Below are positions 26,257 to 54,840 of a stretch of 64,000 bases of DNA, one piece after another. The notes below the pieces were generated by a model that was given only the letters and a program-made list of their open reading frames with translations, ran no database searches and had not been told where the DNA came from. A program made the position numbers and the translations under genes. Numbering within the stretch: the first letter of the stretch is position 1; each line of letters begins with the position of its first letter. Location of the stretch: the sequence record PV390659.2. One strand, given 5' to 3'. Source of the DNA: Escherichia phage vB_EcoM_P8.

Positions 26257-26535
26257 ATGATTATTGATTCTCAATCTGTGGTTCAATATACAATCAAAAT
26301 TGATATTCTAGAAAAGCTATATAAGCTTCTACCAAATTTATACCACTCAATTGTTAATGAATTAGTTGAAGAATTACATCTCGAGAATAATGATTTCTTG
26401 GTTGGAACTTATAAAGACCTCTCAAAAGCAGGATATTTTTACGTAATTCCAGCTCCAGGAAAAAGTATTGATGATGTATTAAAAACTATAATGATTTATG
26501 TCCATGATTACGAAATTGAAGATTATTTTGAATGA
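26257..26535 (+). CDS. arn: anti-restriction nuclease protein Arn
   Basis: 92 aa equals T4 Arn length; position upstream of asiA. Confidence 0.65.
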   Translation: MIIDSQSVVQYTIKIDILEKLYKLLPNLYHSIVNELVEELHLENNDFLVGTYKDLSKAGYFYVIPAPGKSIDDVLKTIMIYVHDYEIEDYFE

Positions 26536-26684
26536 GTCATAATCTTGAAATGGTAATCGAGCATAATGTAGCTCAGGAACGTAAGTCGTTCAAGGAATTC
26601 GTAGAAAAAATTTTTGAAGAAAATAACACAGACCAGTTTACAAATCAAGTGTCTGATGATATTATAATAAAGTCAACTAATTGA
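26532..26684 (+). CDS. hypothetical small protein
   Basis: 50 codons, ATGA-coupled. Confidence 0.35.
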   Translation: MSHNLEMVIEHNVAQERKSFKEFVEKIFEENNTDQFTNQVSDDIIIKSTN

Positions 26685-26696
26685 GTGGTATAGTTA

Positions 26697-26969
26697 ATGA
26701 ATAAAAACATTGATACAGTTCGTGAAATTATTACTGTTGCGTCTATTTTGATTAAATTTTCCAGAGAAGATATTGTTGAGAATCGTGCTAATTTTATCGC
26801 ATTTCTGAATGAGATTGGAGTAACGCATGAAGGTAGAAAGTTAAATCAGAATTCATTCCGTAAAATTGTTTCTGAATTAACCCAAGAAGATAAGAAAACC
26901 CTCATCGACGAATTCAACGAGGGTTTTGAGGGTGTATATCGATATCTAGAGATGTATACGAACAAATAA
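26697..26969 (+). CDS. asiA: anti-sigma70 factor AsiA
   Basis: 90 aa MNKNIDTVREIITVASILIKFSREDIVENRANFIAFLNEIGVTHEG... matches T4 AsiA. Confidence 0.9.
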   Translation: MNKNIDTVREIITVASILIKFSREDIVENRANFIAFLNEIGVTHEGRKLNQNSFRKIVSELTQEDKKTLIDEFNEGFEGVYRYLEMYTNK

Positions 26970-27626
26970 TTATTTAGCCCTTCCTAATATTCTGGCCGCC
27001 TGAGAACATATTGATTCAAGGCGGTCATTACTTATATGATCATTTCTATACCAGTACATGGTTATTGTTCCAGCATAGATATTATCCAAGTTAAAATATG
27101 GACAACTGTACATGTAATTTATTTCGGGAGTAGGCTTTTTAGTTGGTAAAAAAGCAAATTTTGAGTTGGAATAATAATGACGTCCATTTAAATGAACTGC
27201 ATATTCATCCATAGTTTTATCAACAGGATATCCTCCAAGTGATTTTTCGCTTATTGTTGAAGGTAATTTTCCTTCATATGCTATAATATCAACAAAATAG
27301 TTTAAGTTTTTAGGGCGGAAAGAATACACCGCACTAAAGTCTGCCTCAGATGATATGTGAACTATCTGGAGTTGTTCCAGGGCGACAGATTCAAAGCGTG
27401 CATTTCTTTCCTTTTCAATAATTTCACTGTATGTTTCATACTTTGATTGCTTATAGTACTCAAAGAAACTATCTCCCCTATACCAAACAATCGCCATTAT
27501 AAACAAAAGAATTACGACAGCTACCCGGGAAGCAAGAACTTTCCCGGTAGCGTTATCTTTGAACAAGCGATCTAGAACACCCAACAGAATATCAGAGGGC
27601 GAAAATGATATTCTAGGTGCTGCCAT
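26970..27626 (-). CDS. t: holin T
   Basis: 218 aa; MAAPRISFSPSDILLGVLDRLFKDNATGKVLASRVAVVILLF... matches T4 holin. Confidence 0.9.
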   Translation of the reverse strand: MAAPRISFSPSDILLGVLDRLFKDNATGKVLASRVAVVILLFIMAIVWYRGDSFFEYYKQSKYETYSEIIEKERNARFESVALEQLQIVHISSEADFSAVYSFRPKNLNYFVDIIAYEGKLPSTISEKSLGGYPVDKTMDEYAVHLNGRHYYSNSKFAFLPTKKPTPEINYMYSCPYFNLDNIYAGTITMYWYRNDHISNDRLESICSQAARILGRAK

Positions 27627-27656
27627 AGACCCTCCTTTTAAGGATATTTATTCAAA

Positions 27657-28433
27657 TTATACTCTTGGACCATATATTGCTCCAACGTTTTGCCACGTTG
27701 GCGTAGACCCTATGACGGCATAACCAGCAGCTCCGCCATCGTATTCATATCCTTGACCACGAATATTACATCTACCTCCTGCGGAGCCAACTTCACCACC
27801 AGACCCGCCGCTATAGATACCGTTCACAGACCCTGCGCCAGGCGCAGAAATAGTACCGGCAGTTGCTCCTGATTGCATATCAATAGATCCGCCCGGCGCG
27901 CCAAACGGACGACCGCCACCACCGCCAAATGTCAATCTCATTTGTGAAAAAGGAGAATAATATCCGCCACCGCCGCCGCCACCGCCGCCAGCAATAGCTC
28001 CGCCATTATTAATTCTTAGTCTCCCACCAATATCATTTTGAATACAATGACCTCCAGCTGAGCCAGGACTATTGCTACCGCCATTCCCGCCACGGCCATA
28101 CATCGTTACACCGTGTATATTCAGTTGAACATATTCATTTGGTGTATCTCCGTACATGAAGAATAAAGGAACATCTTTAGAATATGATACTAAATCTCCG
28201 GTGATATTAAACACTATAGGTGCACTACCTGCCTCAAAACATCTATCTCGGAACCATTGACCATTGAAGTTATGGTCTGCTCCAAGCGTGTGAATTATTT
28301 CAACAGATCGACCTATCATATTACTCATCCAAAACGGAATGCCCATTCTTAATCGTTGGGCCGCGCCACCCATCCAATTTTGTCCTGTATTAACTACTGC
28401 AGACGATCCTACCCACGGTCCTGTTACTGCCAT
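27657..28433 (-). CDS. 38: long tail fiber tip adhesin gp38, T2-type with glycine-rich motifs
   Basis: About 258 aa from ATG 28433; conserved N-terminus; GGGGGGGGG and GGSGG runs separating variable segments. Confidence 0.85.
27780..28100 (-). repeat. glycine-rich (GGN)n coding repeats inside gene 38
   Basis: Runs of GCC/ACC/GCG triplets on plus strand encoding poly-Gly motifs that separate variable segments. Confidence 0.7.
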
Positions 28434-28444
28434 ATAAACCCCCA

Positions 28445-28460
28445 AGGGGCCGAAGCCCCT
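28445..28460 (-). terminator. intergenic hairpin between genes 37 and 38
   Basis: AGGGGC-CGAA-GCCCCT; no clean U-tract on minus strand. Confidence 0.3.
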
Positions 28461-28464
28461 CTTA

Positions 28465-31400
28465 TTATTTTAACAATGATTTAACTAATGCTTTAAGTTC
28501 TTCGATTTCTGATTTAAGTTCTGCAATTTCTGCAGTATGCTCATTGATTGCAGCTGTATTTAAACCAATTACACCGTTATAGTTCAAACGAAGTAAAGCT
28601 TCACCATCAGGGTCACCTTCAACTAATTCAGGTAAAATAGCTTGAACTTCTTGAGCTATCAAACCGGCGTTAGGTTCCCATTTCTGATTTCCTTCTTCAT
28701 CTAGGCCTCGCTTCTGCATATAAGTGTAACCGTTAATTTTAGAAAGCTTCTCAGAAGCATTTTCAAATTTAACAAGGTCTTTTTTAACACGAATATCAGA
28801 ACGGACATAAACATCGCGGACAAATGTGGAATAGGCATCGCTTTGTTGGACTAAATGACCAAAAGAAATAATAGCTCTTCCTTGTTCAGTCCACAAAGCA
28901 CCAGTGGTATCCCAAAGACCTTCATGGAGATGGTAAGCGGACGACCATGAAGCAATATGCATTCCATTTGCAACCATGTTAATACGACCGTCACCGCCAT
29001 GAACTAACCCAGTGTCATTATCACCAATAACAACACATGCGCCTGTCCATGCAGGGTCACCTCCACCAGCTGATATTCTTACTCCAGCTTTAACCATGTC
29101 AGGAACGTACATGTTTCCATTATGGTGGAATTCGAAGATAGCTTGCGGATCGCTAGCATTTTCCTGGTTACCAACACGGATAATAGCCTGAGCCCATTGG
29201 TTAGTGATACGGCGCATACCGAAATCAACACCAGATACGTATCCTTCATTCGTAATAACAGATTTTCCTTTAATAATAGGATAATAGCAGTCATTGCCGA
29301 CGTAGCCAAAATCTACAAATATCGGCGCTTCTTGTCGCCATTGGTTTGCCCAATCGCCAGCTTGGTGCGCAGTCCACTGTGTACCGTTTATATGAAGGCG
29401 GTCTCTATTAAAATTAAATGTTCCTTGACCTTGAGGAGAAAGCGATATTTCGCCGTTATTTGTTATGTATACACCGCCTTGTGTAATGTAACTGTAAAAA
29501 CCTAGACCATTATCGCCGCCGCCTTTGCCTATATACCAGTTACCTGTACCACCTACATCACTACGGATGTGCGATGAAGCACCCACGCCTGCAGTTAAAA
29601 CAAGAGCATCATTGCCTGCCGATAAAGTCAATTTACCGGTCATCGTGTCGCCTTCTTTCGAAACACGAGTCGCAATAGCATCGCGAATATTTGTAGTATC
29701 ACCGGCAGAAGTAAACGGTTTCCAAATATCAGACCAGATATTACCATTTCGAGCAATAGTAGCTTCACCACCACCGACCTGAACGTTATCCGGGAAGTTA
29801 ACAGTACCGTCTTGATTAAAACGAGACGTATGGCCTTGTGATCCATCTTCTTTGATATGGTGTAAAACAAATGTACCCGAATTAATTTCAGTACCTAAAG
29901 ACCAAACCGCTTTACTGTTTAAAAACTTCTGTTTAACAATAGGATAATATTTGTTTATAGCATCATCATCATCAATTTCCTGGAAAATAGGAGCTGCTTG
30001 AACATACTGAATATCATAACCACCAGCGCCTGCACCGTGACCAGTAAATTTAATATAGCCGTTTGCTGCGAACGTATTGTAACTTGATTGTAAATCTGGA
30101 ATAGTAACTTTACCAGTATCTAAAGCCATACTAAACGGGCGAAGTGGACCGATATCGCCATGTTTACCTTCACCGTAAGCAGTTGGAATAATATGAAGAC
30201 TGCCTTCTGAACGTCTAAAAATGGCTCCATAATCTGCATTCCAAATGCGAAGCGCATTCACTGCTCCAGATGAAATTTCGCCTGTTGTGTGAACTCCTCT
30301 ATTTCCAGCAGTAACACCGGATGATTCAAATGAACCATTGACGTTCATTTCTACTTCACCGGTAGTAAGTCTTTGAATATAACTCATCCAGCTAGTTGCG
30401 TCAGAAATTTCCATGACATTTTTACGATTACCTACACTAGGATTAGTAAACGTATTACCCCATACAGAAATTGTCATATTATCAACTGAACTGCTACCAG
30501 TTGTGTTACCTCTAAACATCAGCGTAGAAGCATTATTACGACCATCAATATTAACAGAACCACCAATAACGTCAATATTACCGGGAGTAACTAACAAACC
30601 GCCGTGAGTATTAATGTTTGTAGTACCTTTACCACGGAAATAGTGATGATAATTACCACCTTGATAATAACCTAAAAGAGTCTGACCGTCGCCATACGCG
30701 TTATTATCATGATAAGTAACAACAGTGGCTAATGCATAGTTTTCTGTCGGTGGCGTTGTCATAAGAATCCCATCCGGAGAATAACCCATAACCATTTTTC
30801 TAAGGCTTTGTGTTTCCGCAGGACCGTAAATGAAAGTTCTTGTTCCGTTGTTTACTGTATGAAAATATCCGTCCTGATGCCATTTAAATCCGGTATCATT
30901 ATCACCAAGAGCAATTGAAGCAGTCCCTAATTCAGAATATCCTTTAGAGCCGCCCGGAAGACCTATAGAAATAGAATGGCCTGCTTTCAATCCACCGGAC
31001 CAGGTAAACGACCAAAGATAGGCATCTAACCCGTCACCGGCGTACCAGGTTATCCCGTCGTTATCTTTAACTTCATGGAATATACCAGATCCTACGGCAT
31101 TTCGCATAACACGGAGGTGGTTAATAGCCGTTTCGCTTTCTGCCAACGGAGTGTTATTTGCTAATGAATAGATATCATAATCGCCTGTCTTCTTCCCATT
31201 TGTAATAACTTTATCGGTCAGAATTTGTGGAGACGAAATAGATTTCCATGCTGATACTTCAGGTGAAGTAAATAGGCCACTGCCTGAAAATGCATAGGTG
31301 CTTTCATCACCAGCGGCGTAGTCTTGAACGCGGATATTAACTACTTGCGTAGTTAATCCATCATTAGCCGGGGCATAAATGATTCCACGTTCGCGGCTAT

Positions 31401-31779
31401 TGCCATCGAAAAAACGAACATGCGATGTACCTGAACTTTTTGTAATAAGTTCTCCACCCTCAGTCATAATCTGCCCGGCGGCAATAATATCGCGAGTTAC
31501 TCGAGCAATACCAGTTAAATTGAAATCACCGGTTTGAGTGAAGGTACCATTTAAAGTATAATCACCAGTTTGATTATAGTTTCCTATATGAATAACATTC
31601 CCGTCAATGCTACCGCCTTTAGCAAAACCAAGATCAATGATATTTCCTTGGTCATCTTTAGTAAAAAGTACGCGGTCTTTTAAGTTTATAGCCAATTCAC
31701 CTTCGGCTAATACTGAAGCGGCAGGACGTGCTCCTGCAGTTTTGCTTCTTTTAAATTGTATTTGTTTTAAAGTAGCCAT
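28465..31779 (-). CDS. 37: long tail fiber distal subunit gp37 with C-terminal intramolecular-chaperone-like domain
   Basis: 1104 aa; N-terminus [23 protein letters not shown]...; C-terminus has S-D-x-R-x-K and GLIAQEVQ plus coiled coil. Confidence 0.9.
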
Positions 31780-31787
31780 AAGTCCTC

Positions 31788-32444
31788 TTAATAATAGCCG
31801 AAATCTTGAACAGAATCCTTAATAACAATTTGATCAAATCGTGGAACATGTGAGGGTTGAGATGCAGGATTCTGTGAAAAAAGGTTTGGCGCAGTTAAAT
31901 TTCCTGTCATAGTATCTCCAGAGCGTAATACCCTAGAGTTTGCGTTTGCTGTAACAATATTTATTGCTCCATCAACATAATCTTTCCGTGTAAGGTCATA
32001 ATTATTTACTGGAGATAATGAAGCTGCGCGTATTTGTGATGCTTCAATTACACCCTTTGAGCTAATATCTCCATTTCGCGTGTTAATTACTACAGTTCTA
32101 CCTGCTGTTCCTTGTGATGATTTAAAACCAATACCATACCACGAAACAATATCCATATTTGTAGTATCATACGTGGCATTATCACCAGGACCAGCAAAAA
32201 TACCATTGTCACCTGACCCTGCACCAGGAACAGTCATTCCTTTATTAAAAATTACTTTATTTAAATACGTACCACCATTAGCTTTAGAAACGAAATCGTT
32301 ATCAGTAGCTTGTGGTTTATTATATTCTGAATATATTTTAAATGATTTATAGAGTACATCGTCACCGGCTGGATTCAATGGAAAATTTCCTTGATGCCAA
32401 ATGACAGAGCCTCCAGTTGTTGAACCTACTTTTAAATCAGCCAT
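31788..32444 (-). CDS. 36: long tail fiber distal connector gp36
   Basis: 218 aa; position and size; late promoter upstream. Confidence 0.85.
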   Translation of the reverse strand: MADLKVGSTTGGSVIWHQGNFPLNPAGDDVLYKSFKIYSEYNKPQATDNDFVSKANGGTYLNKVIFNKGMTVPGAGSGDNGIFAGPGDNATYDTTNMDIVSWYGIGFKSSQGTAGRTVVINTRNGDISSKGVIEASQIRAASLSPVNNYDLTRKDYVDGAINIVTANANSRVLRSGDTMTGNLTAPNLFSQNPASQPSHVPRFDQIVIKDSVQDFGYY

Positions 32445-32467
32445 TGTATGCCCCTTTATTTTAATAG

Positions 32468-32475
32468 TATTTATA
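32468..32475 (-). promoter_or_regulatory. late promoter (TATAAATA) for gene 36
   Basis: TATAAATA on minus strand between terminator and gene 36 start. Confidence 0.6.
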
Positions 32476-32501
32476 AAGAAAAAGGGAACCCGAAGGCTCC
32501 C
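32476..32501 (-). terminator. rho-independent terminator between genes 35 and 36
   Basis: On minus strand GGGAGCC-TTCG-GGTTCCC (one G-U pair) followed by UUUUUCUUU. Confidence 0.55.
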
Positions 32502-32506
32502 TCAAT

Positions 32507-33622
32507 TTAAACTTCTCTAAATTCTTGCCCAAACACTTTACCAGTTTTAGACGATGCTTGCGTAGGAAGTACCATTATATCCGGAGGTGAAGCAGATTCA
32601 CAGACATAATTAACTCGAATACCATTGACGCCAAATTCAGCAGGTTTTGAAATTCCGCCATTTCTTGATACTTCAGAAAAGCTTAAATTTCTCATGCCGC
32701 CTTGACCAGCTTGAGCAGTTCTTTGTGCATATATTGTAAATCCTACTGCGTTTTCTGGAATAACTACATAATCTTCCTTTAATTCCCATGACCCAGCTTG
32801 TCCAGTAAACTCAGCATGTGTTGAAGAAATATATCCATTCGATTCATCATAAAAACGGATAGATATATTTGTAGTTCCAAGCGCAAGTAAATCGGCATCA
32901 GCATATAACTGTGCTTTAAGATAAAGAACATCGCCAGGAATTAAATTATAATCAGATAATTTACTTATCGCGGATGAAGTTGGTAAACGTGCAATTTCGT
33001 TATTAGTTCCACCAACCGCTGACATAAATTGCTCAACGCTTTCATATGTTCTTTTAGGAAATCCTGTAGCTCCAACGTCTTCTAAACTATCAAATACAAC
33101 ATCTAAAATAGTTTGATAATCATCTGTGCTTTTTCTATTGCTTAATTTAACATGTTCTAATGCAATAGCTCTTTTAGAAGAAGTGTAAAAAGCAGCATAT
33201 GATACGTCAAATCTTGACAATATAGAATCAGATGGAAAAGCAGACGTTCCTGTGGCTCTTAGCCAAGATACTACCTCAGGAGGAAAATTAACCTTTCCAC
33301 TAGTTAATATAGCAACAAGTCTATTATTCGTCAAAGAGTTCATGAAACCAACAAAAGCAGCTGATGTAGTATCATTTGAAGTCGAAAAAGCATATGACTT
33401 ACTATCAACTAATGCTCCTGTAGAAGGGTCAAAAACTCTTAAATGAAGACCTGTATTAAATGTTTGGCTTCCGATAGGATTATCCTGAAATTTGACATAT
33501 GGTCCTGCTGTAGAAAGCGGGCAAGAACCCGCTATGCTTATTTTATATCTTACTGAATTGCTTTCCGATAAAAATGGCGTTTGGACATATCCTTGTCCAA
33601 ACTCTGCCATAAATTTTTCCAT
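32507..33622 (-). CDS. 35: long tail fiber hinge gp35
   Basis: 371 aa; position and size. Confidence 0.85.
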   Translation of the reverse strand: MEKFMAEFGQGYVQTPFLSESNSVRYKISIAGSCPLSTAGPYVKFQDNPIGSQTFNTGLHLRVFDPSTGALVDSKSYAFSTSNDTTSAAFVGFMNSLTNNRLVAILTSGKVNFPPEVVSWLRATGTSAFPSDSILSRFDVSYAAFYTSSKRAIALEHVKLSNRKSTDDYQTILDVVFDSLEDVGATGFPKRTYESVEQFMSAVGGTNNEIARLPTSSAISKLSDYNLIPGDVLYLKAQLYADADLLALGTTNISIRFYDESNGYISSTHAEFTGQAGSWELKEDYVVIPENAVGFTIYAQRTAQAGQGGMRNLSFSEVSRNGGISKPAEFGVNGIRVNYVCESASPPDIMVLPTQASSKTGKVFGQEFREV

Positions 33623-33630
33623 AATACCTC

Positions 33631-36600
33631 TTATTCAACCCATTCAAATTTAACCGTTTTATTCACTGGGTCAGGAATAATACGAACATTACCAATTCGT
33701 AAGAAATCACGAATAGTAAGATTCCCCATTATAGCATTATCAGATGGTAAAGCACCAATATCAGATGGCTGAGGAGGGTTACCCCCATCAAATACCTGAA
33801 CAAAACTTGACCAAGAGTTTTTAGTTTTCTGCCATGTACGCGTCCAGCGAGTGGTGCGCGCTTCTGGGGTCGTTGGATAAGTAATCCAATCTTGGTAAAG
33901 CGAATCGAGTGTGTTACCAAACTGAGTCAACGTACCAGGAGATTTAACCTCTTCGCCGCGTTCTAAGTATGGAAGACCAGTCACTTCATTAGTTTTTTCA
34001 ACCATCTTAAAATAACCCGGGAATTGGTTATAAGTGGCTGAATCATTAATATCGATTGACCAGAATCCTACAGTATCAGATGTTGGCGCACGAGTATATA
34101 AATCAGAGGTTTTAGTACCCTGAGAACGAATTCTCGAGTTGACAGTTAAACCACCTGAAGTTATAGTAGCACCTTTGGCAATGATTAAGCTTTCACCAAT
34201 TGTAACCTGACCAGATTGATTATTAATAGCTAAAGGACGTAATCCATTAAATCCACCAGTCTGATCGCCAGATGCAGTAAGCATAAAATAGGTGTTAGCA
34301 GCATCATTGCGAATAAAGAATCCATAATCACCGTTTATTGCTCTAAAAGCATTCGACGATTTACTGATAAATTCGCCATTAGCAGTAACTGAACTACCGA
34401 ATGTTGCAACGCCATTCGCATTCAATGTTCCTGAAGCATTCACATTTATCGGTGTTACTGTACCATTAATGCTAAATGCTATATTACCATCTTTATTGCG
34501 TTGAGAATAAAAGTGATAAGATGTGTCATCACTAACTTCAAATACAGTAGAACGTGTTGTATCTGACCCGCCACCAAACTGATTTCCCCAAACTGTGATA
34601 TTCATCGTCTGTGCTGGGTTAGTTCCAGTTTGAGGTCCTTTCTCAAAAATCAGACGAGTTGCTGTTCCAGTATTAGAAATAGTTAATGTGCTATTTGCCG
34701 AAACTGATCCACCAAACGTAGCAGTACTAGATGATACAAGAGGGGCACTCAGATTCGTTTGTTGGGTTAAGGTTAGTGAACCATTAACCGTTTGTGCAAT
34801 ATCCCTACGAATGAACTGAGATGAATCTAGACCATCCAGTAAATTACTATCTACGGCTTTTGCTTTTAACGGCAAATAATTTGCTAATACACGGTTTAAT
34901 TCATATGGCGATACTGCATAGCTATTTTTCTCGTACAATTCTAATGACTGCGTTGAACCAACTGTATCATTACCAACGAATGTAATTGAACCAGATGAAG
35001 TTTTAACAAAACCTCTTACCAGAGTAGTAGCTGCCCAAGTAGGTTCACTCTGCACAATCCATTTTAAATTTTTTGGAGATACAGCAGTATTTGCTGACGT
35101 TCCAGCTACAGTTTCAGACTGAGTTGCAACTTTAATAACGCCTTCCTGTGCTTCAGTAGATTTAGTACCTAAAAGCTTTTTAGGAGTTATTAAAACATTA
35201 TCTAATGTTCCTGCAGCAGCTTCAACTTGTGTAGCTACACGAAGTGTACCACGCTGAGTCTCATTTGCTTCAAGAATATTAAGGGTATAATGGTCCCAGA
35301 GAGTTCCTGATTCAACTAATCCAGATAGAGCAACAACAGAAGTACGATCAGTACTATTAAATCTGGTTTTAATTTTTAATGGTGTAGAGATACGAGTATC
35401 GTCGACGCCTGCGTCGAATTCAACTTGCGTAGCAATTTCAGCTATACCACTTAAACTTTCAGTTGCTTTACGGTCATTTAAAGTTTTAGGAGTGACTGCA
35501 CGGGTATAATCAGTTCCTGTATTAACTTCACTTTGCGTAGCAATTTCAATTAAACCAATTCTTCCATCAGTTGATGTCTTTTTATGTAACGTTTCTGGCG
35601 TTACAACCGCATTTGCCCATCCTTCTTGGCTTTGTCCAGCAATTACTTCACTTTCGACTGCTAGAATTACTGCACCTTGTTGCGTTGGAGTAGCTTTATA
35701 CTGATCCAAAGCTTTAGGCGAAACAACTAAATTATTAGTGTTTTTATTATAAACGTTTGTACCATTTAATTCACGACTAGAAGCTGGAGTAGCTCCTGCA
35801 GTAGATACAAAGGTTACAATACCAGATAATGACTCAGAACCTTGTCGAGCTTGAAGCTTTTTAGGAGTGATGATTGTAGTATCATCAGTACCTGTGTTAG
35901 TTTCTTGCTGCGTCGCAATTTCAGCAACACCTCTACGAGTTTCTGTGGCAGTTCTTTCATTCAGCTTTTTAGGAGTGACGATAATATCATCAGCAAAAGA
36001 GAATGTAGTATCCTGGTTCACTTGGGCAGTAGTTGCTATTCTTGCGATACCTCTACGAGTTTCTGTAGCAGTACGGTTAGCTAATGTTTCTGGTGTAATT
36101 GCTAATTCTTTTTGTGGAGAATTTTCTAAATCGACGTTAGCTTGAGCTTGTGTAGCTAAAGCAATTACGCCTAATCTTGCTCTAGTAGAATCATTTAAAG
36201 AATCAACTCTTTCAACTGTTGGCACGTTTTGCTGCACCACCCAGTATTTTTCATCAGAATCTTCTATATAAGCAAGCTGTAAAACTGGAACATAATTGGT
36301 TTCGCCGTTAAAAACTAATTCTTGAACAGTCACCCATTCAGCTTCAGGTGGATATTCTGAACGTTTTGGGAATTGCAGCAATTGAACTGAAGAAGCAATT
36401 TTATCTTCACCGGCAGCTTTGATTTTAACTGTTTGTCCTTTTCTCATATAATTCATGGAAATTTTAACAGTATCACCAATGGAAATATCGGTTGGAAGCT
36501 GAAGTTCAATTGTTTGGGTTGTTCCGTTATTCGCTCCAAATACCATAACTTCTTCATTTGGACGAATACTAGAATTAGTTGTTATAATACGTAAACGTGC

Positions 36601-37500
36601 TTTACTATCCCCGTCAAACAATCTCCACAATTTTTCATTATCATCATACAACAAGAAACCATCAATCGATGTACGGCCTTCAATGGAATGAGTTCCAACT
36701 TCTTGCACTGAAGTTGTTTCATCGTATGTAGTAACAATTGTATGATAAAGTGGATTTAGTTTATCTAAATCGACGAAATTAATAATATCGCCATGATTAG
36801 CAAATCTCGGAAGTTTAATATTAATCGCCGCGGCTGAAGTAAATCTGCGCACGATAAAATCGTTAGATTGCGCTTGATAAAGACTTGCCGGCGTCACAAC
36901 CACAGCTTCTCTGCTATAATCAGCAACATACATTTGCCACAGACGATTACTAAAAATTAAAACTATCTGCGATTTTGGATGAGTCATTAGTACTGAACGT
37001 ACTTGTTCGCCTCTGAAGTTTACAATACTTTGCACTGGAGCTACAATTAAAACTTGGTTAACACCAGGTTTTCCTCCAATGTCTTGGAGAACGATAGTAT
37101 CTCCATCAATTGGGGAAGATGGTAAAGTAAATGTAATGTCATTACCAGCTGCAGTATCAACTGAAATTGATTCGCCTGACTTTAATTGATAAGGTCCTGA
37201 TGAAACAGTTGTCCAATTAGCATCAGTACGTAATGCTCTCCAACGCACGCTATTAAAAGCTCCTGCTGGTTTTGGAATATCATTTATAGCAGCCCAAAAG
37301 CGGTTATCATAAATGATTACAAAATCTTTTAAATATCCACGAGTTGGATCGTATTGTTGAACTGTGTTTTCTTGAATTAAGTAATCAACGTTAACACCGT
37401 CAGTTCCTACGGTACGATCAGCTAAAGCTACGTTGATTATTTTATCGCCACCTGCGTCCAGACCGTCTTCTGCTCTGAACTTTCTTTTAATCTCGGCCAT
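33631..37500 (-). CDS. 34: long tail fiber proximal subunit gp34
   Basis: 1289 aa equals T4 gp34 length; MAEIKRKFRAEDGLDAGGDKIINVALADRT...; internal TPKKL..ATE..G.AEIAT repeats. Confidence 0.95.
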   Translation of the reverse strand: MAEIKRKFRAEDGLDAGGDKIINVALADRTVGTDGVNVDYLIQENTVQQYDPTRGYLKDFVIIYDNRFWAAINDIPKPAGAFNSVRWRALRTDANWTTVSSGPYQLKSGESISVDTAAGNDITFTLPSSPIDGDTIVLQDIGGKPGVNQVLIVAPVQSIVNFRGEQVRSVLMTHPKSQIVLIFSNRLWQMYVADYSREAVVVTPASLYQAQSNDFIVRRFTSAAAINIKLPRFANHGDIINFVDLDKLNPLYHTIVTTYDETTSVQEVGTHSIEGRTSIDGFLLYDDNEKLWRLFDGDSKARLRIITTNSSIRPNEEVMVFGANNGTTQTIELQLPTDISIGDTVKISMNYMRKGQTVKIKAAGEDKIASSVQLLQFPKRSEYPPEAEWVTVQELVFNGETNYVPVLQLAYIEDSDEKYWVVQQNVPTVERVDSLNDSTRARLGVIALATQAQANVDLENSPQKELAITPETLANRTATETRRGIARIATTAQVNQDTTFSFADDIIVTPKKLNERTATETRRGVAEIATQQETNTGTDDTTIITPKKLQARQGSESLSGIVTFVSTAGATPASSRELNGTNVYNKNTNNLVVSPKALDQYKATPTQQGAVILAVESEVIAGQSQEGWANAVVTPETLHKKTSTDGRIGLIEIATQSEVNTGTDYTRAVTPKTLNDRKATESLSGIAEIATQVEFDAGVDDTRISTPLKIKTRFNSTDRTSVVALSGLVESGTLWDHYTLNILEANETQRGTLRVATQVEAAAGTLDNVLITPKKLLGTKSTEAQEGVIKVATQSETVAGTSANTAVSPKNLKWIVQSEPTWAATTLVRGFVKTSSGSITFVGNDTVGSTQSLELYEKNSYAVSPYELNRVLANYLPLKAKAVDSNLLDGLDSSQFIRRDIAQTVNGSLTLTQQTNLSAPLVSSSTATFGGSVSANSTLTISNTGTATRLIFEKGPQTGTNPAQTMNITVWGNQFGGGSDTTRSTVFEVSDDTSYHFYSQRNKDGNIAFSINGTVTPINVNASGTLNANGVATFGSSVTANGEFISKSSNAFRAINGDYGFFIRNDAANTYFMLTASGDQTGGFNGLRPLAINNQSGQVTIGESLIIAKGATITSGGLTVNSRIRSQGTKTSDLYTRAPTSDTVGFWSIDINDSATYNQFPGYFKMVEKTNEVTGLPYLERGEEVKSPGTLTQFGNTLDSLYQDWITYPTTPEARTTRWTRTWQKTKNSWSSFVQVFDGGNPPQPSDIGALPSDNAIMGNLTIRDFLRIGNVRIIPDPVNKTVKFEWVE

Positions 37501-37533
37501 TCTCCCGGCTCCTATTGTGTTTTCAATAATAAG

Positions 37534-37541
37534 TATTTATA
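37534..37541 (-). promoter_or_regulatory. late promoter (TATAAATA) for gene 34
   Basis: TATAAATA on minus strand about 35 nt upstream of gene 34 start; divergent from rnh early promoter. Confidence 0.65.
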
Positions 37542-37544
37542 CTT

Positions 37545-37574
37545 GTTTACTTTAAGATTCGGATGGTATATAAT
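37545..37574 (+). promoter_or_regulatory. T4-type early promoter upstream of rnh
   Basis: GTTTAC, 18-nt spacer, TATAAT. Confidence 0.55.
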
Positions 37575-37603
37575 AGAAATCTCACTAATTGAACGAGGTT
37601 CAT

Positions 37604-38521
37604 ATGGATTTAGAAATGATGCTGGATGAAGATTACAAAGAAGGAATCTGCTTAATTGACTTTAGTCAAATTGCGCTTTCAACTGCTTTAGTAAACTTCC
37701 CAGATAAAGAAAAAATTAATTTATCAATGGTTCGTCATTTGATATTGAACTCAATTAAGTTTAATGTCAAAAAAGCAAAAACTCTTGGATACACTAAAAT
37801 TGTGTTGTGTATTGATAATGCGAAATCTGGATATTGGCGTCGTGATTTTGCTTATTATTATAAGAAAAACCGTGGAAAAGCACGAGAAGAATCTACTTGG
37901 GATTGGGAAGGTTATTTTGAATCCAGTCATAAAGTTATAGATGAATTGAAAGCTTATATGCCATACATTGTTATGGATATTGATAAGTATGAAGCAGATG
38001 ACCACATTGCTGTTCTTGTTAAAAAGTTCTCTTTAGAAGGACATAAAATTTTAATCATTTCATCGGATGGTGACTTTACTCAACTTCATAAGTATCCAAA
38101 TGTTAAGCAATGGTCACCGATGCATAAGAAATGGGTTAAAATTAAAAGCGGTTCTGCTGAAATTGACTGCATGACTAAAATCCTTAAAGGTGATAAAAAG
38201 GATAACGTCGCTTCAGTTAAAGTACGATCTGACTTTTGGTTTACCAGAGTTGAAGGCGAACGAACTCCTTCAATGAAAACATCTATTGTTGAAGCTATTG
38301 CTAATGACCGTGAGCAAGCTAAGGTGCTTCTCACTGAATCTGAATATAATCGATATAAAGAAAATTTAGTTCTAATTGATTTTGATTATATTCCTGATAA
38401 TATTGCTTCAAACATTGTGAATTACTATAATTCATATAAATTACCACCGCGTGGCAAAATTTATTCATATTTTGTAAAAGCGGGTCTTTCTAAATTAACT
38501 AATAGCATTAATGAATTTTGA
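37604..38521 (+). CDS. rnh: RNase H (5'-3' exonuclease / flap endonuclease)
   Basis: 305 aa from ATG 37604; MDLEMMLDEDYKEGICLIDFSQIA... matches T4 Rnh. Confidence 0.9.
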   Translation: MDLEMMLDEDYKEGICLIDFSQIALSTALVNFPDKEKINLSMVRHLILNSIKFNVKKAKTLGYTKIVLCIDNAKSGYWRRDFAYYYKKNRGKAREESTWDWEGYFESSHKVIDELKAYMPYIVMDIDKYEADDHIAVLVKKFSLEGHKILIISSDGDFTQLHKYPNVKQWSPMHKKWVKIKSGSAEIDCMTKILKGDKKDNVASVKVRSDFWFTRVEGERTPSMKTSIVEAIANDREQAKVLLTESEYNRYKENLVLIDFDYIPDNIASNIVNYYNSYKLPPRGKIYSYFVKAGLSKLTNSINEF

Positions 38522-42218: not shown

Positions 42219-43247
<1,029 letters not shown>

Positions 43248-53717: not shown

Positions 53718-54295
53718 AAGCGAGTACAGTACTTCAAATTGCATATTTAGTATCACAAGAATCAAAATGTTGCTCCTGGAAGGTAGGAGCAGTAATTGAA
53801 AAGAATGGACGTATTATTTCTACCGGATATAATGGTTCACCTGCCGGGGGTGTGAATTGCTGCGATTATGCTGCTGAGCAAGGTTGGTTGCTGAATAAGC
53901 CTAAACATACTATCATTCAAGGTCATAAGCCTGAATGTGTATCATTTGGTTCAACTGATCGTTTTGTCTTGGCGAAAGAACATCGCAGCGCTCACTCTGA
54001 ATGGTCGTCTAAAAATGAAATTCATGCTGAACAAAATGCGATTTTGTTTGCTGCACGAAATGGTTCTTCAATTGAAGGTGCTACTATGTATGTAACACTT
54101 TCTCCTTGCCCAGATTGTGCAAAAGCAATAGCTCAATCTGGAATTAAAAAGCTAGTTTATTGCGAAACATACGATAAAAATAAACCTGGCTGGGATGATA
54201 TTCTGCGAAATGCAGGTATTGAAGTGTTTAATGTTCCTAAGAAAAACTTGAATAAGTTAAACTGGGAAAATATCAACGAATTCTGTGGTGAATAA
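53714..54295 (+). CDS. cd: dCMP deaminase
   Basis: 193 aa; HAEQNAI...PCPDCA zinc-binding deaminase motifs. Confidence 0.9.
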   Translation: MKASTVLQIAYLVSQESKCCSWKVGAVIEKNGRIISTGYNGSPAGGVNCCDYAAEQGWLLNKPKHTIIQGHKPECVSFGSTDRFVLAKEHRSAHSEWSSKNEIHAEQNAILFAARNGSSIEGATMYVTLSPCPDCAKAIAQSGIKKLVYCETYDKNKPGWDDILRNAGIEVFNVPKKNLNKLNWENINEFCGE

Positions 54296-54531
54296 TGAAA
54301 TTTCGTTTGGTACAGCTCACAGCAATTAGTTCTTATTCTAACGAGAACATTTCATTTGCTGTAGAGTATAAGAAATATTTTTTCTCTAAATGGAAGCAGT
54401 ATTATAAGTCAGAATGGGTTTGTATTGATAGACCTTATAGTTGGAAATCTGATTTAGAAAAATGCCAAAAGTTGCTTTCCACTCTTAAAGAACGTGGAAC
54501 AACCCATATTAAAACTGTGATAGGCAAATAA
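54295..54531 (+). CDS. hypothetical protein
   Basis: 78 aa. Confidence 0.5.
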   Translation: MKFRLVQLTAISSYSNENISFAVEYKKYFFSKWKQYYKSEWVCIDRPYSWKSDLEKCQKLLSTLKERGTTHIKTVIGK

Positions 54532-54840
54532 ATGAAACTGACGACTGAACAAAAAGTAGCAATTCGTGAAATTTTGAAAACTAAATTGTCCATGGGTATT
54601 TCAAACGTGGTTTTTGAAAAGTCTGATGGTACTATTCGTACTATGAAAGGTACTCGTGATGCAGACTTTATGCCAACCATGCAAACCGGTAAATTGACTG
54701 AATCTACTCGGAAAGAATCTACTGATATGATTCCAGTATTTGATGTTGAACTCGGTGCATGGCGAGGTTTTTCTATTGACAAATTGATTTCCGTTAATGG
54801 CATGAAAGTTGAGCATTTGCTTCAATTTATTGGTAAATAA
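54532..54840 (+). CDS. hypothetical protein
   Basis: 102 aa. Confidence 0.5.
   Translation: MKLTTEQKVAIREILKTKLSMGISNVVFEKSDGTIRTMKGTRDADFMPTMQTGKLTESTRKESTDMIPVFDVELGAWRGFSIDKLISVNGMKVEHLLQFIGK

Follow-up and report, generated by a model that had tools for sequence, protein, structure and literature searches.

In T2 and T6, gp37 is reported to undergo C-terminal proteolytic cleavage, after which it is capped by gp38 (Trojet 2011, citing Drexler 1986). The tip of the S16 fibre (PDB code: 6F45) is formed by a trimeric gp37 beta-helix with a reportedly autocleaving C-terminal chaperone, and by one gp38 with a polyglycine-II sandwich (Dunne et al. 2018). Autocleavage of the last 113 residues of S16 gp37 is reported to expose the docking surface for gp38, and three conserved Trp of gp38 plug into hydrophobic pockets on gp37. 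S16 targets Salmonella OmpC, PP01 gp38 (PDB code: 9V85) binds OmpC of O157, and T2 gp38 uses FadL. T6, RB27, and the RB3-RB7 group are Tsx users, and a Tsx-specific subgroup of T6-like gp38 has been defined (Trojet 2011). FL23 and FL44 no longer infected a mutant with tsx deleted (Lutz 2025). An exchange of gp38 from the second hypervariable segment (HVS2) onward is enough to switch porin specificity; PST, which is three amino acids off T6, gained OmpA, and Q206L in RB68 led to a switch from OmpF to OmpW. The biology of such modules is established (Trojet 2011; Dunne 2018).

The whole stretch of 64,000 nucleotides analysed here (the window), from Escherichia phage vB_EcoM_P8 (PV390659.2), very probably includes a Tequatrovirus module of T2/T6-type architecture for the distal long tail fibre and its adhesin, the receptor of which is most likely Tsx. 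The gene order, the family membership of the two proteins, the conservation of their motifs, the fold, and the near-identity of the adhesin to those of reportedly Tsx-dependent phages are direct observations. The open reading frames of g37 and g38 lie on the minus strand where the earlier note had placed them, in the gene order g34-g35-g36-g37-g38-t, so that g38 directly follows g37 and precedes the holin gene t (Table 1). Escherichia phage vB_EcoM_BMB16 (PV102577.1, Tequatrovirus) is 100% identical to the window; the same DNA is already in GenBank, and the module is not new.

Table 1. Features of the fibre and adhesin module, in positions of the window.
Feature	Position	Strand	Basis
T4-type late promoter box TATAAATA	32468..32475	-	exact match
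Gene 36, small distal fibre subunit, joins gp37 to hinge	31788..32444	-	Pfam Phage_T4_gp36, E 4e-29
Gene 37, distal long-tail-fibre subunit precursor, 1104 aa, 119 kDa	28465..31779	-	ORF, PHROG 1699
Predicted mature gp37, aa 1-993, 106.7 kDa	28801..31779	-	cleavage position inferred from S16 alignment
Peptidase_S74-type intramolecular chaperone domain, aa 994-1104, 111 aa, 12.3 kDa	28468..28800	-	PF13884
SDIRVK motif S994...K999, putative Ser-Lys dyad	28783..28800	-	sequence position
C-terminal heptad-repeat helix of gp37 chaperone domain	28468..28533	-	a/d hydrophobic spacing
GGGGC-UUCG-GCCCC hairpin in g37-g38 spacer	28445..28460	-	sequence, folding
Gene 38, receptor-recognising adhesin, 258 aa, 26.1 kDa	27657..28433	-	Pfam Gp38_N + GP38
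gp38 N-terminal attachment domain, aa 1-40, Trp7/Trp20/Trp35	28314..28433	-	Pfam Gp38_N
gp38 specificity domain, aa 111-258	27660..28103	-	Gly-run map and adhesin alignment
HVS1	about 28005-28076	-	
HVS2	27927-27962	-	
HVS3	27810-27899	-	
HVS4	27738-27773	-	

T4-type late boxes work as late promoters, and the box TATAAATA, which precedes g36 by 24 nt, is likely the start of a g36-g37-g38 transcript. The spacer between g37 and g38 is 31 nt long and includes a hairpin, then a GGGGG Shine-Dalgarno-like run, and then the ATG of g38; the hairpin has a seven-pair stem and a UUCG loop in both the minimum-free-energy and the centroid folds. In the mechanical list of open reading frames g38 begins four codons earlier, at a TTG (28445). 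The ATG at 28433 is preferred since the GGGGG run lies 5 nt upstream of it, it is used in GenBank, and the homologues all begin with MAV. A scan for sigma-70 promoters and terminators gave counts near shuffle expectation, and from the promoter and terminator scans nothing was retained but the exact late-promoter boxes and two hairpins with UUCG loops. No RNA family was found by Rfam between 26500 and 38000, and no tRNA in the whole window.

PHROG 1699 ('long tail fiber protein distal subunit') covers the full length of gp37 (E 0). The identity of gp37 is 88% to FL23 gp37 and 33-36% to T6 and T2 gp37 (36% for T2 gp37, which has 1341 aa), and one patch has 93% DNA identity to PP01 g37. The module layout and the S74 domain of gp37 are the same in T2, and T6 gp37 carries this domain as well, whereas in T4 gp37 its place is taken by Collar and fibre repeats. 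In the window, Peptidase_S74 (PF13884) matches residues 994-1053 of the 1104 (E 1.1e-12, 48.5 bits, cut-off 22), and position 1 of the profile falls on residue 994. Residues 912-1104 align with the S16 gp37 construct (E 1.7e-43), published cleavage site included, and the chaperone domain aligns with the C-terminus of S16 gp37 (6F45_A, E 2e-33). A profile of four gp37 C-termini matches the ICA domain of MYRF (PDB code: 7DC3, E 2.5e-9) and the neck appendage chaperone of GA-1 (PDB code: 3GUD, E 0.0076). The C-terminal position, the S-D-x-R-x-K start, the (I/V)AQ...LPE core, and the terminal helix are shared with both; however, the sequence similarity is distant, and the passenger of the gp37 domain is a T-even fibre shaft, not a tailspike or a transcription factor. 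About 15 different tail-fibre PHROGs also match the domain at their very C-terminal end. Therefore, judged by its sequence, the gp37 C-terminus is an S74-type intramolecular chaperone with a Ser/Lys motif, of the auto-cleaving type that had been proposed for it. It had been given about 110 aa with a boundary at 28797; the domain has 111 aa and starts one codon before, at 28800. Both motifs named earlier are present, S-D-x-R-x-K as SDIRVK at residues 994-999 and GLIAQEVQ at residues 1039-1046 (28642-28665). The coiled coil is also present as a heptad helix with hydrophobic a/d spacing, in which a 21-nt tandem duplication (28489-28530) corresponds to one heptad. Since a single-sequence AlphaFold model of residues 914-1104 has a mean pLDDT of 39.9 and is confident in the last helix alone (73-88), the chaperone fold is taken from sequence and profile evidence.

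In S74-type domains the Ser and Lys are said to be catalytic, as attributed to Schulz and colleagues in 2010. DVYVR^SDIRVK of gp37 aligns with DLNVS^SDRRIKK of S16, the reported autocleavage site; thus R993|S994 is the predicted scissile bond, with release of the domain predicted after trimerisation, and the DVYVR end of mature gp37 is the predicted docking face for gp38. It is very unlikely that the S74 domain is instead kept in the mature fibre as part of the tip, being inactive or slowly cleaved, with gp38 bound elsewhere or transiently. The residues before the cleavage site do differ between the window and S16, the last of them being Arg in gp37 and Ser in S16. However, the Ser/Lys dyad and its surrounding motif are intact, with V990, Y991, and R993 as well as S994, D995, R997, and K999 invariant in the four types compared (window, FL23, T6, and T2), and the cleavage reported for T2 and T6 before capping, like the autocleavage reported for S16, argues for removal of the domain.

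Two Pfam families were found in gp38, GP38 (PF05268; E 2.4e-71, 240.5 bits, cut-off 25) and Gp38_N (PF21721; E 1.5e-21, 76.6 bits, cut-off 25). Since both of these and Peptidase_S74 exceed their curated cut-offs, the observation on gp37 and gp38 is not due to chance. PHROG 2056 ('tail fiber protein; host specificity') also matches gp38 (E 2e-110), and its PDB sequence matches are 9V85 of PP01 (E 4.5e-81) and 6F45_D of S16 (E 6.7e-52). The AlphaFold model of gp38 has a mean pLDDT of 86.6. When it was searched against the PDB with Foldseek, 9V85 (E 6.5e-27, TM 0.87, rmsd 2.3 A; 67% identity) was the best structural match, followed by 6F45_D (E 5e-21; 44% identity in the structural alignment), and no other fold was matched. 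Thus, the modelled fold of gp38 is a beta-helix with a polyglycine-II sandwich, and the architecture predicted for the window is that of the S16 tip. Gly makes up 24% of gp38 overall and 33% of residues 111-258, with runs such as G9 (residues 149-157) and G5 (residues 170-174). The earlier description of gp38 as an adhesin of about 258 aa with poly-Gly motifs is borne out by these Pfam, PHROG, PDB, and fold matches, and on sequence grounds gp38 belongs to the T2/T6-type adhesin family. W7, W20, and W35 are invariant with respect to T6 and T2, and W7 and W20 are invariant across 50 homologues.

In a T4-type module, gp38 would be merely an assembly chaperone that is not in virions, and the tip of gp37 would bind the receptor. 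It is only the gene name and position that favour such a reading, along with the T6 GenBank record, in which gp38 is labelled 'assembly catalyst'. However, gp38 has no similarity to T4 gp38 (BLASTP E 1.8), in agreement with the contrast drawn in the earlier note, and it has an adhesin fold according to AlphaFold and Foldseek. The N-terminal 640 aa of gp37 have 35% identity to T4 gp37, but no alignment extends beyond residue ~640, and the Collar and fibre-repeat tip of T4 gp37 (PF07484, PF03335) is absent. With gp38 unrelated and the gp37 tip domains missing, a T4-type module is ruled out at the level of sequence, and its probability is close to nil.

Variable segments were mapped by aligning gp38 with adhesins of known receptor, T2 and T6 among them. 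[quoted passage not shown] The adhesins of T6, RB27, and FL23 share with gp38 of the window the Pfam families, five glycine-rich motifs, and four hypervariable segments, the sequences of which are nearly the same. The specificity domain has 93.2% identity to T6 and 94.6% to FL23, and RB27 differs from it by two substitutions, while T2 has about 48% identity (about 46% over the full length of gp38). The full set of four T6-type segments is present: HVS2 aligns with the T6 form (YYSPFPQMRLTF) and does not differ from the HVS2 of FL23, which depends on Tsx, and HVS3 and HVS4 are nearly identical to T6, with a handful of substitutions in HVS2-4 relative to T6, RB27, and FL23. In PP01, HVS2-4 are unrelated in sequence to these T6-type loops, and the S16 loops differ as well. 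Therefore, by alignment the specificity domain is T6-type, and of the 'T2-type' label given earlier the architecture stands but the specificity does not. Since the loops are of the T6/RB27 type, the receptor is most likely the E. coli outer-membrane nucleoside channel Tsx, which was missing from the receptors listed in the earlier note (OmpA, OmpC, OmpF, and FadL). The proposal that host range would be set by the variable loops of gp38 is supported by homology.

About nine positions of the specificity domain differ from T6, and the residues that are private or rare with respect to T6 are S163, D185, A192, A197, A200, S208, S211, Y229, and T244. Since very few exchanges in gp38 can be enough to alter or broaden specificity, and the window differs from both T6 (about nine) and RB27 (two), an altered host range is possible. 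It is unlikely, though, that the same architecture serves a different or additional receptor rather than Tsx alone; LPS, OmpA, or an outer-membrane protein of Yersinia would be the candidates, by comparison with PST or the type-1 OmpA adhesins. Besides the private residues, the phylogenetic proximity of type-1 OmpA adhesins to the Tsx group speaks for it, as does the 73% identity of FL18 (OmpA) over the specificity domain. However, the T6 residues are kept at the positions that define PST (T6 Q167, M168, and G208), HVS2-HVS4 of the OmpA type in FL18, Ac3, and M1 are clearly different from those of the window, HVS2 is shared with FL23, which depends on Tsx, and RB27, two residues away, counts among the Tsx users.

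The N-terminal half of gp38 is not T6-type: residues 1-110 are of the FL08/CE1 sequence type, also carried by SH7, with 74% identity to T6 and, close to the N-terminus, a 2-aa deletion. It is conceivable, if improbable, that gp38 is a natural chimera of an FL08/CE1-type attachment half and a T6-type specificity half, in which the few private substitutions in HVS2-4, e.g. S163, S211, and Y229 when compared with T6 or RB27, might allow OmpA or a host other than E. coli to be recognised in addition to Tsx, as the three substitutions of PST do.

The preferred reading, with Tsx as the receptor, can be potentially described as follows. Late expression of g36, g37, and g38 would give gp37 as a precursor of 1104 aa, the last 111 residues of which, as an S74-type chaperone, may nucleate trimerisation of the beta-helical fibre. 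The chaperone would then remove itself through a Ser994/Lys999-mediated cut of the R993|S994 bond, which would expose a flat trimeric tip with DVYVR at its end. One gp38 may dock on this tip via its N-terminal domain (Trp7, Trp20, and Trp35), and its polyglycine-II sandwich would display the hypervariable loops that bind the receptor in the outer membrane of the host. In this scheme we infer the cleavage of gp37, the stoichiometry of capping, and the identity of the receptor by homology with the described systems.

The biology of the module reportedly goes back to the work of Drexler in 1986 and Riede in 1987. The module was described correctly in the earlier note but is ordinary, its biology having been known since 1986-87, and it adds little that is new. 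The practical value is in annotation, since the GenBank record labels gp38 as 'hypothetical protein' and gp37 as 'tail fiber'. The sequence also yields specific predictions, namely that Tsx is the primary receptor and that gp37 is cleaved at R993|S994 to a mature length of 993 aa; such predictions help to choose or engineer T-even phages for host-range work.

Open reading frames of 60-127 aa on the plus strand inside g37 appear to be mechanical, being antisense to a strongly supported gene. As candidates for gp57A, the general fibre chaperone, two small open reading frames at 54295-54840 of the window were considered but not counted in the module. A WYL_2 domain is present in one of them, and for the other the sole match is a PHROG of unknown function. 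Their neighbours are the open reading frame of a 'head assembly chaperone protein' on one side and the dCMP deaminase gene on the other, and both small frames are labelled 'tail fiber protein' in the GenBank record.

g37 and g38, which encode the precursor of the distal long-tail-fibre subunit and the adhesin, respectively, lie inside the canonical T-even long-tail-fibre block, and the gp36, T holin, gp38, and gp37 domains were confirmed by Pfam. The 4.1-kb module is 100% identical to that of Escherichia phage vB_EcoM_BMB16 (PV102577.1, Tequatrovirus), where g37 is labelled 'tail fiber' and g38 'hypothetical protein', and about 88-92% identical to that of more than 100 other T-even phages. It belongs to thoroughly characterised families, its exact sequence is already public, and it is already known. 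An upstream TTG in the ORF list was rejected as the g38 start in favour of the ATG at 28433, since a GGGGG ribosome-binding run precedes the latter, every homologue opens with MAV, and PV102577.1 uses the ATG.

Features of the fibre block and of two other loci in the window
Feature	Position	Strand	Product or remark
g34	33631-37500	minus	
g35	32507-33622	minus	hinge protein
g36	31788-32444	minus	
g37	28465-31779	minus	1104 aa
g38	27657-28433	minus	258 aa
t	26970-27626	minus	holin
Late-promoter box	37534-37541	minus	just upstream of g34
Late-promoter box	32468-32475	minus	just upstream of g36
UUCG hairpin	32482-32503	minus	after g35
UUCG hairpin	28445-28460	minus	g37-g38 spacer
Two small ORFs	54295-54840	plus	78 and 102 aa; PV102577.1 16174-16719
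Dihydrofolate reductase gene	42464-43045		PV102577.1 27969-28550

The gp38 sequence comprises Pfam domains Gp38_N (aa 1-40) and GP38 (aa 45-258, E 2.4e-71), and matches the PHROG 'tail fiber protein; host specificity'. It also matches the gp38 receptor-binding domain of PP01 (PDB code: 9V85, identity confirmed; E 4.5e-81) and gp38 of Salmonella phage S16 (6F45_D, E 6.7e-52), whereas BLASTP against T4 gp38 gave E 1.8. An AlphaFold model based on 50 homologues (mean pLDDT 86.6) matched only these two folds in the PDB, superposing on 9V85 with TM 0.87 and rmsd 2.3 Å and on 6F45_D with E 5e-21. Trp7, Trp20, and Trp35 are present. Glycine makes up 24% of the protein and 33% of aa 111-258, and occurs in runs of nine (G9) and five (G5). 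Judged by these matches, gp38 is an adhesin and not a T4-type chaperone, and the earlier note was correct on this point as well as on the poly-glycine motifs in a protein of about 258 aa. Glycine (GGN) codons account for the whole of the rise in local GC content to about 50-52% at 27657-28103, against roughly 35% in the genome background, with 56% GC at codon positions 1 and 2 of g38 and 30% at position 3; the rise does not indicate a foreign origin.

Identity to the window was compared over aa 111-258, the specificity domain with the four hypervariable segments (HVS1-HVS4), and receptors were taken from papers where reported. The closest sequences are from Tsx users: RB27 with two substitutions (S211G and Y229S), FL23 with 94.6%, and T6 with 93.2% identity. 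Ac3 (78%), FL18 (OmpA, 73%), M1 (69%), the OmpA users FL08 and AV119 (53%), KIT03 (53%), and T2 (FadL, 48%) follow. Tsx is used by T6, RB3, RB5, RB6, RB7, RB14, and RB27, and nearly all Tsx binders have one set of hypervariable segments in common (Trojet et al.); tsx dependence of FL23 and FL44 has also been shown (Lutz et al. 2025). Exchange of gp38 from HVS2 onward suffices to switch porin specificity (2026 preprint). Few substitutions can change specificity: PST is three residues from T6, and a single one, Q206L, switched the receptor of RB68. At the three PST positions, the gp38 of the window has the T6 residues. By its sequence the adhesin is T6-type, and Tsx is very probably its receptor. 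The module and its interpretation in the earlier note stand with one refinement: instead of the receptors that it listed (OmpA, OmpC, OmpF, and FadL), the T6-type specificity domain indicates Tsx.

Over aa 1-110, gp38 is only 74% identical to T6, but its identity reaches 94-96% with FL08 and CE1 and 99% with cluster P0001; cluster P0002 joins a T6-type N-terminus to a specificity domain 99.3% identical to that of the window. Therefore, Tsx-type loops are carried on two attachment-domain types, FL08/CE1-type in the window and T6-type in P0002. This agrees with the modular model of Trojet and with the PP01 paper, in which a match was required between the cognate gp37 and the first ~113 aa of gp38. 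g37 itself is a patchwork with two patches that diverge sharply from the nearest relatives GEP001, RB27, and FL23 (51-85% identity in 150-nt bins); the best matches are RPN226 (99%) and PP01 (93%) for 30645-31245, and NBEco003 (94%) for 29295-29745. On sequence comparison this is recombinational mosaicism in the fibre shaft, typical of T-even fibre genes and not remarkable. A 28-nt direct repeat (82% identical; 29006-29033 and 30887-30914) encodes G-D-N-D-T-G at gp37 aa ~292 and ~917, and conserved motifs such as this could be recombination points for the exchange of fibre segments.

The C-terminus of gp37 is predicted to be a self-cleaving intramolecular chaperone. Pfam Peptidase_S74 matches aa 994-1053 (48.5 bits, cut-off 22) and begins exactly at Ser994. 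Residues 912-1104 match the S16 gp37 construct (6F45, E 1.7e-43), as do the last 116 residues alone (E 2e-33), with DLNVS|SDRRIKK of S16 aligned with DVYVR|SDIRVKK. A passage of PMC7917993, citing Dunne 2018, reports that autocleavage of the last 113 residues of S16 gp37 exposes the gp38 docking surface. In an alignment of gp37 from the window, FL23, T6, and T2, which are elsewhere only 33-36% identical, V990, Y991, R993, S994, D995, R997, K999, and the G-x-x-AQ...LPE core are among the invariant residues. A profile of these four C-termini has matches in 7DC3, the autoprocessing chaperone domain of MYRF (E 2.5e-9), and in 3GUD, the neck-appendage chaperone of GA-1 (E 0.0076). Matches to the S74 domain lie at the very C-terminal end of many tail-fibre PHROGs that otherwise differ, as would be expected for a portable module. 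The last 22 residues have hydrophobic a/d spacing and contain a 21-nt tandem duplication of exactly one heptad (28489-28530, copies 86% identical), encoding successive heptads EIAELKS and EIEELKA of the terminal helix. Both the chaperone-type domain and the coiled coil first noted in gp37 are borne out. Cleavage is predicted to leave a 993-aa mature gp37 (106.7 kDa) and to release a fragment of 111 aa (12.3 kDa). C-terminal processing of gp37 followed by gp38 capping is described for T2 and T6 (Trojet et al. 2011, whose references include Drexler et al. 1986).

T6 and T2 gp37 share Peptidase_S74 with the window, whereas T4 gp37 has a Collar domain and fibre repeats in its place and aligns with gp37 of the window over the first ~640 residues only. 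The gp37 of the window also has a Gp34_trimer domain at aa 450-551 (30127-30432), which aligns with solved structures of the C-terminal part of gp34 (4UXE, 5NXF; E ~1e-11); on this similarity, there is internal homology between the proximal and distal fibre subunits.

Both g36 and g34 are preceded by a late-promoter box that matches the T4 sequence exactly (TATAAATA). The 31 nt between g37 and g38 contain the hairpin GGGGC-UUCG-GCCCC, which immediately precedes the ribosome-binding site of g38; a similar hairpin after g35 has a T-run and the late promoter of g36 downstream of it. Both hairpins have a UUCG tetraloop closed by C-G and, like such elements known in T4, probably stabilise the RNA or act as terminators. 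An Rfam scan of 26500-38000 found no family, and a tRNA scan of the window found none.

Residues 58-125 of gp35 match Pfam ILEI (interleukin-like EMT inducer; E 1.5e-7, 32.2 bits, cut-off 27), a family whose name one would not expect for the hinge of a phage fibre. The two small ORFs, labelled 'tail fiber protein' in GenBank, are flanked by a 'head assembly chaperone protein' ORF and a dCMP deaminase gene; a WYL_2 domain is present in one, the only match of the other is to a PHROG of unknown function, and the fibre label looks unsupported. The dihydrofolate reductase gene carries a resistance-gene style GenBank note, 'DfrA52', and appears to be an ordinary T-even frd.
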